Below, piece after piece: positions 8,227 through 44,531 of a stretch of DNA of 64,000 nt. Origin of the DNA: Alphaproteobacteria bacterium (GTDB lineage: Bacteria; Pseudomonadota; Alphaproteobacteria; JAAEOK01); NCBI GenBank assembly GCA_024244705.1, contig JAAEOK010000075.1, positions 29,320 to 93,319 on the forward strand. The letters are read 5' to 3'. A program made the translations under genes and the position numbers. The notes under the pieces were generated by a model, which made no database searches, had not been told where the DNA came from, and worked only from the letters and a program-made list of their open reading frames with translations. Numbering within the stretch: the stretch's first letter is position 1; the number at the start of each line of letters is the position of its first letter.

Positions 8227-8754
8227 ATGCGAAAATATTCTCCTCTATTCCCCGTCTTCGCCGCCGTGGTGCTCCTCGGCGTCTCGAATGGTGCGCGCGC
8301 CGAGGATCCGGAATTGCCGGTCCATCACTGCGCCGCCGCGGTCGGCACCTATCTGGCGACGCATTACCGGACCGACGGCGACGAGCAGGAAGTGGCGAGC
8401 CGCGCGCTTCTCGCGCTGACCAACGGGGGCCACGTCATCCGCATCGATTCCGGTGAGGCGGGAGAACCCGGCTATTCGCCGTTCAGCGACAATCTGGGCC
8501 GGTGGCGGTGCCTATCGAAGGAAGGGGAAACGCCGAAACTATCGGGCACGTTCCTCAACTTTACCTTCCCCGTTGGCCGGCCCCAGCAGATCGCCCGTCT
8601 CGATTTCACCGCGACCTACGATGCCGAGATCATGGTTCTGGAAGGGCGGGTCGGCCTCTCCTTCGTCGGCCTGGAAGAGGACCCTTACGATCCGGCGATC
8701 GAACGGGAAGAAACCGTGTTCGGCCTCACCGCCAAGAAGATCGTCGCTCCCTAG
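8227..8754 (+). CDS. Secreted hypothetical protein (signal peptide)
   Basis: MRKYSPLFPVFAAVVLLGVSNGARAEDP is a signal peptide with an A-x-A cleavage site. No recognisable family. Confidence 0.5.
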   Translation: MRKYSPLFPVFAAVVLLGVSNGARAEDPELPVHHCAAAVGTYLATHYRTDGDEQEVASRALLALTNGGHVIRIDSGEAGEPGYSPFSDNLGRWRCLSKEGETPKLSGTFLNFTFPVGRPQQIARLDFTATYDAEIMVLEGRVGLSFVGLEEDPYDPAIEREETVFGLTAKKIVAP

Positions 8755-8796: not shown

Positions 8797-10383
8797 CTAT
8801 GCGCCCAGGTGACCGCTGTGCTCGGACGGTGAGCCGACCTCGTGCTTCTCGGCGGCGAGCCGCTTGAGCGCCAGGCGGTCGGTCTTGCCGGTCGGATTGA
8901 GCGGTATTTCGTCGAGGAACTCGATCTCCTCGGGCGCCTTGTAGCCGACCCGGTCGCGGGCAAAGCGGATCAATTCGTTGACCGGTGGCGGGGTGGCCCC
9001 GTCCTCGAGCGCCACATAGGCGCGCACGTTCTCGCCATGGAGCAGGTCGTAGACTCCGATCGCGCCGACAGCCGCCACGGCGGGATGCTCGAGCAAGGCC
9101 TCCTCGACCTCCTGGGGGCAAATATTCGAGCCGTCGTGAACGATGATCTGCTTCTTGCGGCCGCAGAACCAAAGGAAGCCGTCCTCGTCCGACTTCATCA
9201 CGTCGCCGGTATCGAGCCAACCCTCGCGGTAGACCTCTTGCGTGGCCTGCGGGTTGTCCCAATAGCCCACCGTGCTGGTCGGCGTCTTGGCCCACAAACG
9301 CCCCTCGACGCCGTGCGCGACTTCCCGGTCCTGTTCGTCGCGAATGGAAAAATGAAACCCATGGACGGGACGACCGACCGAACCCAATCTATAGTCGTCG
9401 GACGGCGGGCTAAGCGTGGCCAAGCCGATTTCCGTCATGCCATAGCCTTCATCGATGGGGAAACCCGTCAGCTCGGTAAATTCTTTCTCGAGCTCCGCCG
9501 GCACCTTGTCACCGCCCGAGCGCACCAGGCGGAGCGAGGCGAAGTCCTCACGGGTCGCCCGGTGCTCGCCGACAAAGCGCAACAGCGCCGCCGGCAGCAT
9601 GCACAGCACGGTTGGTCGCTCCGACCGCAACAAAGGGATGATTTCGTCGCCGTCGAAAGTACGGACCACGATGACGCGGGCACCGACCGACAAGGCCGCG
9701 AATGAAAACAGGAAGCCGCCGAGGTGGGATATCGACGAACCCGGCATCATGACGTCGCCGGCCGTGAGTTCGAAACCATGGGCGCAGGCGGCGAACATCC
9801 ATCCAAGCGTGTTGTGGGAATGGGTGACGCCCTTGGGTTTGCCGGTGCTGCCCGAGGTGAAAAAGATGACCGCAGGATCCTCCGCAAGCGGTGCCGCAAA
9901 CGTGGTGTCGGAGGCTTCGCGCGCGACCAATTCCTCGAAGGCCGGGCGGCGCCCGTCATCGGCGCCATAGGAGATCAAGCCGTGCGACAATTGGCCGGCC
10001 AACCGGCTGTCGGCGATGTCCGGGTCGCGCTCGGCATGGGCGAACAGGACGGCCGCGCCGCTGACCTCGAGCGCGTGATCGATCTCCGGCGCGGTGTAGC
10101 GGTAATTGAGCGGGGTCGCGACGAGGCCGGCGCGGAGACAGGCGAGGTAATGGATCAACAAGGCGTCCCGGTTGGGCATCAGCGAGGCGACCCGCGTCCC
10201 GGGGGTCAGGCCGAGGTCGCGCAGACCGGCGGCGACATTGGCCACCGCGTGGTCGAGTTCGCGCCAAGTCCAACGCCGTTCCGCTGAAACCAGCGCGGTC
10301 TCGTCGGGCTTGGCCTGCACTTCGGGACGCAGCAGACCGGCGATCTCGAAGGGTGCTTTCAGGGGATGTCCGGTGAGAGGCAT
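8797..10383 (-). CDS. AMP-dependent synthetase/ligase (acyl-CoA synthetase, fatty-acid-CoA ligase family)
   Basis: AMP-binding motif FTSGSTGKPKGV, an adenylation core and a C-terminal ligase domain. Confidence 0.8.
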   Translation of the reverse strand: MPLTGHPLKAPFEIAGLLRPEVQAKPDETALVSAERRWTWRELDHAVANVAAGLRDLGLTPGTRVASLMPNRDALLIHYLACLRAGLVATPLNYRYTAPEIDHALEVSGAAVLFAHAERDPDIADSRLAGQLSHGLISYGADDGRRPAFEELVAREASDTTFAAPLAEDPAVIFFTSGSTGKPKGVTHSHNTLGWMFAACAHGFELTAGDVMMPGSSISHLGGFLFSFAALSVGARVIVVRTFDGDEIIPLLRSERPTVLCMLPAALLRFVGEHRATREDFASLRLVRSGGDKVPAELEKEFTELTGFPIDEGYGMTEIGLATLSPPSDDYRLGSVGRPVHGFHFSIRDEQDREVAHGVEGRLWAKTPTSTVGYWDNPQATQEVYREGWLDTGDVMKSDEDGFLWFCGRKKQIIVHDGSNICPQEVEEALLEHPAVAAVGAIGVYDLLHGENVRAYVALEDGATPPPVNELIRFARDRVGYKAPEEIEFLDEIPLNPTGKTDRLALKRLAAEKHEVGSPSEHSGHLGA

Positions 10384-10554
10384 GGTTTACGCCCAATCGG
10401 AATGATCAAATCATGGCCGACAGGTCCTAATCGATCCCCGCCCCGAGCGAAAGGGTTTTCGGCGCGTCGTGGATTTCATCGGGGCGCATGGTGACCAAAG
10501 CGTGATTTCTTGGCCCTTTCGCGGAATGCGGAGAGCGCCTATATATAGGGCGTC

Positions 10555-10862
10555 GGGCAACCGACTATGGCGATAAACGATGTTCGCAATAAGCAATGCG
10601 GACCCGGGGGCGGTACCCGGCGCCTCCACCATCTACCGGTTTTCGTCGCGGCCTCGGCGCGGCGTCACGTTATGGGGGCGAAATAGGATCGACGCGTGTG
10701 TAAAGGTATATCTTTCGCTCGGCATGGTACCACCGTTATCGGGCCAAAACCAAAGATGCCAATGACAACGATTTGGCTCTCGCTGCTTAATAGCTAAGCA
10801 AGCGCGGTTCGGGGGGCACCGGGCAACAGAAGCCCCCCACTGTTTGGTGAATGCGAACGGGG
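10555..10862 (+). ncRNA. ssrA: Two-piece (circularly permuted) tmRNA gene ssrA, encoding tag ANDNDLALAA; ends about 3 nt before the sspB ATG
   Basis: - Acceptor piece: a 5-7-5 T-arm (CCGGG-GGCGGTA-CCCGG), a CGCCTCC 3' acceptor strand and discriminator A-CCA (10621-10631), i.e. the gene-level sequence ends GCCTCCACCA.
- Coding piece: after a 42-nt spacer, starts at 10674 with GGGGGCGAAATAGGATCGACG (tmRNA 5' consensus GGGGnnGAnnnnGGAUUCGACG), whose GGGGGCG pairs with CGCCTCC.
- Tag ORF: GCC AAT GAC AAC GAT TTG GCT CTC GCT GCT TAA TAG (10758-10793) gives ANDNDLALAA, a double stop inside the canonical stop hairpin, and an LAA ClpX degron.
- P2: the 3' tail GGTGAATGCGAACGGGG is complementary to GTTCGCA in the acceptor-piece 5' region.
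- Boundaries are approximate. Confidence 0.75.
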
Positions 10863-10864
10863 TC

Positions 10865-11350
10865 ATGACGCAGGCTGACTACAACTATAACCTTCTCGTT
10901 CACGACGCACTGACCGGCGTCGTGCGCGGCGTTTTGACCGACGCGGCGAAGAACGGGTTGCCCGGACAGCACCATTTCTACATTACCTTCTCGACCGGCC
11001 ACCCCGGCATCGAAATGCCCGACTATCTTCGCGTTCAATACCCGGAAGAGATGCCGCTGATATTGCAGCACCAGTTCTGGGGTTTGGACGTATTCGACGA
11101 TTCGTTCGAGGTGACACTCAGCTTCAAGGGCGTTCACGAACGCCTCCATGTCCCGTTCGAGGCGATCACGACCTTCGCCGACCCCTCCGTCAATTTCGTT
11201 CTTCGCCTCGGCCTCGTCGATTCCGACGAGATCGGTGACGGCGAAGAAACCGCGCCCGAAGGGGCGACGCTGCACCAGGACGACCTGCCCGTGATCGATG
11301 CGGACGACGGCGACAATGTCGTTTCCATCGATTCCTTCCGCAAAAGCTGA
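10865..11350 (+). CDS. sspB: ClpXP adaptor SspB (stringent starvation protein B), SspB-alpha type
   Basis: Strong similarity to alphaproteobacterial SspB: ...HHFYITFSTGHPGIEMP...YPEEMPLILQHQFWGL...FEVTLSF...LHVPFEAITTFADPS... and a C-terminal ClpX-binding tail VVSIDSFRKS. Start taken at the ATG MTQADYNYN (10865); alternative TTG/GTG codons lie at 10844/10847. Confidence 0.8.
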   Translation: MTQADYNYNLLVHDALTGVVRGVLTDAAKNGLPGQHHFYITFSTGHPGIEMPDYLRVQYPEEMPLILQHQFWGLDVFDDSFEVTLSFKGVHERLHVPFEAITTFADPSVNFVLRLGLVDSDEIGDGEETAPEGATLHQDDLPVIDADDGDNVVSIDSFRKS

Positions 11351-42482: not shown

Positions 42483-43571
42483 CTAGCGCTTGCGCCAGGT
42501 GAAGGTGGCGTTCATGCCGTAGTTCCACACCGCGCCGACGACGGCACCGCTGAACCCGGCGAGGAACCAGATCACACCCCGATCGAAGAGAAACTGAGCG
42601 ACGGTCACGTTGATCACGGCGCCGATGCTGCACGCGGCGTAGAAGGTTGCCAGGCCGCGCAGCGCGAGCCAGCCGCCGAGCCGTCGTTCGCGGAACGTGA
42701 TGATGTTGTTGAGGTGAAAGTTGACGGTCATCGCAACGATGGTGGCGATCGCCTGCGACCACATGAACGGAAACTCGCCGATCCGGAACAGCAAGCCGAG
42801 CAAGGTCAGATGCACGGCGAGGCCGCCCAACCCGACCATTACGTAAAGCATGAACCCGACCGGGATCCAGCCGCGAAACAGCTTGTCGAGGACCAGCATG
42901 AGGAATTCGAGCGAGACCAGAACGTCGAGCTTGCTCTTGCCCGAATGGCGCGCGCGGAAGTGGAACGGCAGTTCCCGCACCGGCACCGGGCGGCGCACCG
43001 TGGCGAGAATGTCGAGCAGGATCTTGTAGCCGCGCGCGGTCAATCCGTGGGCCGCCTCATCGAACAGTTCGCGCCGCAACATGAAGAAGCCGCTCATCGG
43101 GTCGGTGAGCGGCATGCGCGTCACGATCCGGCTGATACGGCGCGCCAGCAGGCTCATCCGCTCGCGTGTCGATGACGACAACCCTTCGGCGCTGCCGCCT
43201 TCCAGGAAGCGGCTGCCAACAACGATCTCGACATCCTCGCTCTTCAGCACCTCCAACATCGTCGGCAACAAGGTCTCGTCATGCTGGAGATCGGCGTCGA
43301 TGACGGCAACGAAGGGCGTTTCGGTTGCCAGGATGCCTTCGATGCAGGCCGAGGACAATCCGGATCGGCCGATGCGGTGGATCACCCGGACCCGGTCATT
43401 CTCTCGCGCCAGCCGTCGCAGTTCATCGCCCGTTCCGTCGATCGAATCGTCGTCGACATAGACGATTTCCCAGGCGTCGCTATCGAATGCGCGGCCGATG
43501 CGTTCGAACAGCGGCCGGACGTTGCCGACCTCGTTGAGGGTCGGCACGATGATGGCGAGTTCCACGGTCAC
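42483..43571 (-). CDS. Family-2 glycosyltransferase fused to a C-terminal GtrA-like 4-TM domain (polyprenyl-phosphate sugar transferase type)
   Basis: GT2 DXD context (IVYVDDDSIDGT, VIDADLQHD), then a GtrA-like membrane domain. Confidence 0.8.
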   Translation of the reverse strand: MTVELAIIVPTLNEVGNVRPLFERIGRAFDSDAWEIVYVDDDSIDGTGDELRRLARENDRVRVIHRIGRSGLSSACIEGILATETPFVAVIDADLQHDETLLPTMLEVLKSEDVEIVVGSRFLEGGSAEGLSSSTRERMSLLARRISRIVTRMPLTDPMSGFFMLRRELFDEAAHGLTARGYKILLDILATVRRPVPVRELPFHFRARHSGKSKLDVLVSLEFLMLVLDKLFRGWIPVGFMLYVMVGLGGLAVHLTLLGLLFRIGEFPFMWSQAIATIVAMTVNFHLNNIITFRERRLGGWLALRGLATFYAACSIGAVINVTVAQFLFDRGVIWFLAGFSGAVVGAVWNYGMNATFTWRKR

Positions 43572-43820
43572 GGTGCGTTGCAGACGCTAACGGGCGACGG
43601 CGACACCGCCTGTCGCGCCCAGCGGGAATGCTTCGATCTATGCGCCATGGCAATTCGGGAAAGGTTTGGAACGGGCCGGAACCGGTGTGGATGGGCGCAG
43701 CAATACAGGTCGGCGGCGGCCATTTCAACTCTTTGCGGCGCGACGTCGATCGGGTCTATTGCCGAACGCCGCGACCGTTTATCGTCGGGCCGGACACAAT
43801 CGCAGGCGGCGCACGACGGC

Positions 43821-44531
43821 ATGTCTCGAACCGGGGCAAAAAAAATCGACCGCTGGTCACCCAACCACGGGCCGCGGGTAAGCAACCCGGTGGATATTCT
43901 GTTGCTCCATTACACCGGAATGGAACGGGCGGCCGACGCCCTCGATCGGCTGACCGATGCCGAAACGGGGGTCAGTGCCCACTACATGATCGACGAGGAT
44001 GGGACGGTCTATCGTCTGGTTGCCGAAGAGCGGCGCGCCTGGCACGCCGGCCGCAGCTGTTGGGCGGGAGAAGCCGATATCAACAGCCGCTCGATCGGTA
44101 TCGAGTTGGTCAATCCCGGCCACGAATTCGGCTACCGTCCGTTTCCGCAAGCGCAAATCGCGGCCCTCATCGATCTCGCCGGCGAAATCATCGCCCGCCA
44201 CCCGATCCCGCGATGGCGAGTCCTCGGACACTCGGACGTCGCGCCGTCGCGCAAGCTCGACCCTGGAGAGATGTTCGATTGGCCCGGTCTCGCGGCCGCC
44301 GGCATCGGCGTTTGGCCACAGGACGTCGACACGTCGGCAGTCGATCTTGCCGCGGCGGCGGACGACCTCGCGGCGTTTGGCTATTGCATGTCGGGTGGTG
44401 GCGACCGCGCGCAGACCGTGACGGACAGCGTGGTCGCGTTTCAACGTCATTACCGGCCACGGCGGATCGACGGCGAGATCGACGGTGAAACGGCTGCCCT
44501 TGCGAGGGCCGTGGTCGGCATGATGGATTGA
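43821..44531 (+). CDS. ampD: N-acetylmuramoyl-L-alanine amidase, AmpD-like (amidase_2 family)
   Basis: ...VDILLLHYTGME...AHYMIDEDGTVYRLVAEERRAWHAGRSCWAGEADINSRSIGIELVNPG...GHSDVAPSRKLDPGEMFDW. Start at ATG 43821; the ORF-track extension to 43281 overlaps the divergent GT2 gene. Confidence 0.75.
   Translation: MSRTGAKKIDRWSPNHGPRVSNPVDILLLHYTGMERAADALDRLTDAETGVSAHYMIDEDGTVYRLVAEERRAWHAGRSCWAGEADINSRSIGIELVNPGHEFGYRPFPQAQIAALIDLAGEIIARHPIPRWRVLGHSDVAPSRKLDPGEMFDWPGLAAAGIGVWPQDVDTSAVDLAAAADDLAAFGYCMSGGGDRAQTVTDSVVAFQRHYRPRRIDGEIDGETAALARAVVGMMD

Follow-up and report, generated by a model that had tools for sequence, protein, structure and literature searches.

The protein-free gap at positions 10384 to 10864 of the window (the whole 64,000-nucleotide stretch of alphaproteobacterial DNA analyzed here) almost certainly contains a working ssrA gene in the circularly permuted form typical of alphaproteobacteria; the predicted product of this gene is a two-piece tmRNA. 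This identity follows from the call of ARAGORN, from two Rfam covariance models matched far above their thresholds, and from the comparative structure of 41 genes. An earlier note on the same DNA had placed a two-piece permuted tmRNA gene in a 480-bp gap at this site; the gap measures 481 bp, and Infernal searches with the Rfam models (RF01849 and RF04321) and ARAGORN both return a permuted tmRNA, settling the identity of the gene.

Detection and setting of the gene

The sole gene reported by ARAGORN in the entire window is a permuted tmRNA (tmRNA*) at 10537-10881, with the tag ANDNDLALAA followed by two stops. The alpha_tmRNA model (RF01849; gathering threshold, 50 bits) matches 10513-10841 with 266.6 bits and an E value of 1.9e-76, covering model positions 1 to 355 of 355, and the tmRNA_permuted model (RF04321; gathering threshold, 47 bits) matches with 156.8 bits. 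At gathering thresholds, Rfam yields just one other match in the window, to RNase P RNA. Neither the Rfam start at 10513 nor the ARAGORN limits at 10537 and 10881 represent ends of the RNA. The permuted order of the gene is directly visible, since the encoded CCA (10629-31) lies upstream of GGGGGCG (10674-80), the 5' end of the coding piece.

On its upstream side, the gap is flanked by a minus-strand gene for an AMP-binding acyl-CoA synthetase (8797-10383; Pfam). Farther upstream is a minus-strand gene for the flavin-dependent thymidylate synthase ThyX (PF02511; 7034-8098), which has a long N-terminal extension, about 87 residues ahead of the domain; it is adjoined by a plus-strand open reading frame of 175 amino acids (8227-8754) with a signal-peptide-like start and no Pfam match. 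The ssrA gap had been taken for the largest noncoding gap in the window, but that distinction belongs to the gap of about 900 bp (44532 to approximately 45430) between an Amidase_2 gene (43281-44531) and mraZ, which contains a full-length class A RNase P RNA on the plus strand (RF00010; 44566-44962; 287 bits). The mraZ gene itself heads a dcw cell-division and cell-wall cluster that includes rsmH, ftsI, murE, murF, murD, and murG.

Two predicted RNA pieces and their conserved structure

All elements of the tmRNA gene lie on the plus strand. The gene is preceded by a promoter-like element, CTTTCG-N17-CTATAT (10516-10544), which falls within positions 1 to 39 of the RF01849 model, in its unstructured 5' portion. 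Upstream, conservation in the 41-gene alignment sets in with this element: the first hexamer retains its CTT, CTATAT is likewise retained, and the two hexamers stay 17 nt apart (consensus, CTTTAA-N17-CTATAT). The arrangement resembles the alphaproteobacterial sigma-70 consensus, CTTGAC-N17-CTATAT. From the position of this element, a transcript start is predicted near the 5' hairpin at 10552. A promoter and terminator scan built on E. coli-type consensus sequences found no site.

The acceptor piece, of about 80 nt (10552-10631), is delineated by the Rfam alignment, the pair list, and covariation. Its 3' end is the encoded CCA, and its 5' end is put at about 10552 by the position of the promoter-like element together with the onset of conservation. 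It opens with a hairpin (10552-56/10561-65) in which four of five pairs show compensatory changes, followed by the 3'-side strands of the long helix H2 (10569-73, 10579-85, and 10594-600), which are supported by the Rfam alignment and by covariation. The remainder can be read directly from the sequence: a T-arm with the stem CCGGG (10604-08), the loop GGCGGTA (10609-15), and CCCGG (10616-20), then the acceptor 3' strand CGCCTCC (10621-27), the discriminator A (10628), and CCA (10629-31). Each of these elements had been listed in the earlier note, and all are in place, with the CCA ending at 10631.

The coding piece, of about 168 nt (10674-10841; Rfam, alignment, and pair counts), opens with GGGGGCGAAATAGGATCGACG at 10674, the start assigned to it previously. 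Its first seven nucleotides, GGGGGCG (10674-80), form the acceptor 5' strand and pair with CGCCUCC at 7 of 7 positions, as had been proposed; the pair G10676:U10625 is the G3:U70 wobble, the alanine identity pair. All 41 genes keep this G:U as the third acceptor pair, and the T-arm (a 5-bp stem with a 7-nt loop) and the acceptor stem as a whole are invariant and 100% paired in the same 41 sequences.

The T-loop GGCGGUA had been suspected of being atypical because it lacks UUCGA, but it is the norm for the clade: the window loop equals the RF01849 consensus (GGCgGUA), and among the 41 genes 12 have GGCGGUA, 28 have GGCAGUA, and 1 has GGCAGUG. Judged from these sequences, the non-UUCGA T-loop is a trait of the whole alphaproteobacterial lineage and not of the window gene alone.

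Between the two pieces lies an intervening sequence (10632-10673), bounded by the encoded CCA and the first G of the coding piece and predicted to be excised in maturation; the marks of such excision visible in the sequence are this CCA and an RNase P-type junction. The 42-nt spacer reported earlier is thus exactly 42 nt. In the 41 relatives this segment is unconserved and ranges from 23 to 51 nt, and the hairpin that can be drawn within the window copy does not exceed shuffled sequence in stability (z = -0.39). In the 41-gene alignment, conservation ends after CCCCCCAC(U), at about 10841. From these limits, the mature pieces are predicted to span 10552-10631 (about 80 nt) and 10674-10841 (about 168 nt), with the 3' end of the latter placed where conservation stops. 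An extent of 10555-10862 with pieces of roughly 80 and 200 nt had been given before; the size of the acceptor piece stands, whereas conservation of the RNA extends from about 10552 to 10841 and the coding piece is correspondingly shorter.

To assess the structure, the window ssrA was aligned with 40 relatives, and pairings were taken from the Rfam alignment and from our own reading of the 3' part. Within the resulting 58-pair structure, 96.2% of the cells in the 41 sequences are standard pairs, compared with 40 to 47% when partners are slid by 1 to 3 columns. Two-sided changes occur in 23 pairs, as opposed to 2 to 5 in the slid controls, and none of 500 shuffles reaches 23. H2, the 5'-side strands of which lie at 10693-98, 10706-12, and 10715-19 (Rfam and pair counts), comprises 18 pairs in three segments, with compensatory changes in 12 and paired cells of 100%, 82%, and 90%. 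Hairpin H5 (10781-89/10795-10804), within which the stop codons of the tag are located, is 98% paired and has 2 compensatory pairs. Pseudoknot PK2 (10805-08/10818-21 plus 10811-16/10833-38; pair counts) is 100% paired, with compensatory changes in 5 of its 10 pairs. Its pairing of CGGU (10805-08) with ACCG (10818-21) covaries and was kept; a second PK2-like pairing, of AACAG (10825-29) with CUGUU (10840-44), was rejected, its 3' strand being unconserved in relatives.

The octamer CGGGCAAC lies at 10554-10561, within the 5' hairpin that opens the acceptor piece, and recurs at 10820-10827, within the invariant loop of PK2. The repeat looks coincidental, since the hairpin loop is different in most relatives (e.g., GGCTTGCC).

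PK1 is expected at 10720-57. Pairing in its first stem (10720-23/10732-35) reaches 96%, with hardly any variation in sequence, and an exhaustive helix search of 10720-10757 for a second stem returned several mutually exclusive alternatives, none with two-sided covariation. Because the region is nearly invariant across the 41 genes, the second stem is not assignable. One of the alternative helices pairs GGCAU (10721-25) with AUGCC (10756-60) and covers the resume codon. The layout of the coding piece, a PK1 region, the tag, H5, and PK2, is that of two-piece tmRNAs, which have PK1 and PK2 only (PMC3985003). Leaving PK1 aside, the features of the RF01849 family that can be checked by sequence all appear in the window gene.

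That the window carries a decaying or silent copy, with another ssrA elsewhere in the genome doing the work, is very improbable. The window spans 64 kb of the genome, which leaves room for a second copy, and its H2 contains two noncanonical pairs (A10596/G10696 and U10584/U10707), but such mismatches sit where relatives also pair poorly (alignment columns 83/226, 84/225, and 97/211). Against decay, G3:U70, the ACCA end, the T-arm, the resume codon, the LAA end of the tag, and the double stop are all intact; the RF01849 match spans the full model; every position that is invariant among the 41 relatives is kept; and the promoter-like element and the synteny with sspB are preserved. A chance resemblance, or the misreading of a different RNA (a piece of tRNA-Ala or a one-piece tmRNA of the standard kind, for example), has in its favor the general false-positive rate of tmRNA finders (PMC4131195) and is already refuted, with next to no residual probability, by the E value to a clade-specific model, the directly visible permutation, the lack of any tRNA called by ARAGORN at the locus, and the covarying structure among homologous genes.

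The tag and its expected use

The tag frame of this permuted ssrA gene occupies 10758-10793 and is identified both by ARAGORN, which places the coding part at 222-257 of the gene starting at 10537, and by direct reading. The codons GCC AAT GAC AAC GAT TTG GCT CTC GCT GCT (10758-10787), of which GCC is the resume codon, are followed by TAA TAG (10788-10793) and specify ANDNDLALAA, exactly as the earlier note had translated them.

Relatives were sought in one genome per species as any DNA encoding ANDNDLALAA and a stop. Forty-two loci were returned; every one belongs to an uncultured alphaproteobacterial genome, and many of these genomes are labeled Rhodospirillaceae. ARAGORN calls a permuted tmRNA with this tag in 40 of these 42 genomes, and of the remaining two one is truncated by the locus end. 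The peptide is identical in 42 other genomes despite synonymous differences. None of the 42 genomes is that of the window, ssrA being at most about 80% identical and the fumarase gene about 75%, and no identical SspB protein is on record. The tag string had no match in full-text literature or in the supplements of the tmRNA database.

What is observed for this gene is its sequence, how it matches the models, a structure that is conserved and covaries, a tag shared among relatives, and linkage to sspB; the course of processing, charging, tagging, and proteolysis set out below is what the established biology of the tmRNA family would predict. A single precursor, probably transcribed from CTTTCG-N17-CTATAT at 10516-10544, would contain the acceptor (3') half first and the coding (5') half second. 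RNase P would cut before G10674, and tRNA 3'-end enzymes would trim to the encoded CCA at 10631, in line with the processing proposed for two-piece precursors (PMC3985003). The RNA of the former enzyme is also encoded in the window. Loss of the 42-nt intervening sequence would leave two RNAs, of about 80 and 168 nt, which would stay joined by pairing along the acceptor stem (7 bp) and along H2.

The G3:U70 pair and the discriminator A in the tRNA-like domain point to charging with alanine, at the CCA end, by alanyl-tRNA synthetase. When a ribosome has stalled on a broken mRNA, the charged tmRNA would, together with SmpB, enter its vacant A site; translation would resume at GCC 10758, add (A)ANDNDLALAA, and stop at TAA. 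The tagged protein would then pass to ClpXP, with its C-terminal LAA read by ClpX and the ANDN part probably read by SspB, which is encoded directly downstream. A search of the six-frame translation of the 64-kb window for the SmpB motif G.E[VI]KS, the one means by which smpB was sought, was negative, as is to be expected given that smpB need not be linked to ssrA.

Permuted tmRNA was reportedly described by Keiler, Shapiro, and Williams in 2000 (PNAS 97:7778) and is said to be functional in Caulobacter. The window gene agrees with the two-piece tmRNA of Caulobacter crescentus and other alphaproteobacteria in its permuted order (acceptor piece, intervening sequence, and coding piece), in the tRNA-Ala-like domain formed in trans with an encoded CCA, in apparently possessing PK1 and PK2 only, and in its ANDN...LAA type of tag and GGCRGUA type of T-loop. 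Its 10-codon tag is presumably shorter than that of Caulobacter. The permuted tmRNAs of Betaproteobacteria and Cyanobacteria (RF01850 and RF01851, merged in RF04321; PMC11915505) share the permuted principle and the tRNA-like domain but have their own flanking structure and a T-loop of the UUCGA type (RF04321 consensus, GGGUUCGAUUCCC). The window gene is built on the alpha-specific pattern.

The window tmRNA is expected to function as does the standard one-piece SsrA of E. coli (RF00023), being charged with alanine, acting with SmpB, restarting translation at a resume codon, and adding a tag with an ALAA end that ClpXP and SspB recognize. [quoted passage not shown] Compared with known two-piece tmRNAs, nothing in the window ssrA is structurally new, and the differences are confined to the sequence level.

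Linkage of ssrA to sspB

Immediately downstream of ssrA, on the same strand, is sspB (10865-11350), encoding the ClpXP adaptor for tmRNA-tagged proteins. Its product matches the Pfam family SspB (PF04386) with 134 bits and the solved structures 2NYS (E = 6e-34), 2QAS (E = 4e-28), and 2QAZ (E = 2e-27), the last two of which are structures of SspB-alpha; the gene is a neighbor of the RNA gene and not part of it. SspB-alpha is said to have been presented by Lessner et al. in 2007 (J Bacteriol 189:272) as an alphaproteobacterial adaptor for tagged proteins. According to reviews, SspB hands tmRNA-tagged proteins to ClpX in Caulobacter as well as elsewhere. The SspB of the window probably serves as the adaptor for the ANDNDLALAA tag. 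The order ssrA, sspB, and class I fumarase on one strand recurs in 39 of the 40 same-tag loci with room for it. A literature search for the adjacency of ssrA and sspB retrieved optogenetics papers only.

The junction between the two genes is very tight in the window: the ATG of sspB at 10865 lies only 23 to 24 nt past the last conserved base of the tmRNA (10840 or 10841). In most relatives, the spacer between tmRNA and sspB is 70 to 105 nt long and contains a promoter-like motif (CTTGCG...), whereas the window spacer is without this motif. The E. coli-type scan found no terminator-like site between the tmRNA and sspB of the window. The spacer of about 24 nt, the missing CTTGCG motif, and the missing terminator-like site together raise the possibility of cotranscription in the window, such that sspB might be expressed from the ssrA primary transcript and not from a separate promoter; we regard this reading of the sequence as tentative and rather doubtful. 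Cotranscription of ssrA and sspB throughout the clade is unlikely, given the promoter-like motif in the spacers of most relatives.

The ssrA of the window is an already known kind of gene, found by routine annotation, and raises no new question. Understanding of permuted tmRNA dates from 2000, and thousands of examples are catalogued: the tmRNA database contains 11,946 unique permuted sequences, and Rfam models specific to them exist (PMC11915505). The practical yield is mainly one of annotation, in that the gap can be labeled ssrA (two-piece tmRNA with the tag ANDNDLALAA) and the gene after it sspB. The gene also assigns the window to an alphaproteobacterium with relatives among uncultured "Rhodospirillaceae"-type lineages. 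Of the features of the locus, only the closeness of ssrA to sspB is mildly interesting. If sspB is indeed made from the ssrA primary transcript, 3' processing of the coding piece would release the mRNA of the adaptor, thereby coupling the levels of the tag RNA and of the adaptor that acts on its products.
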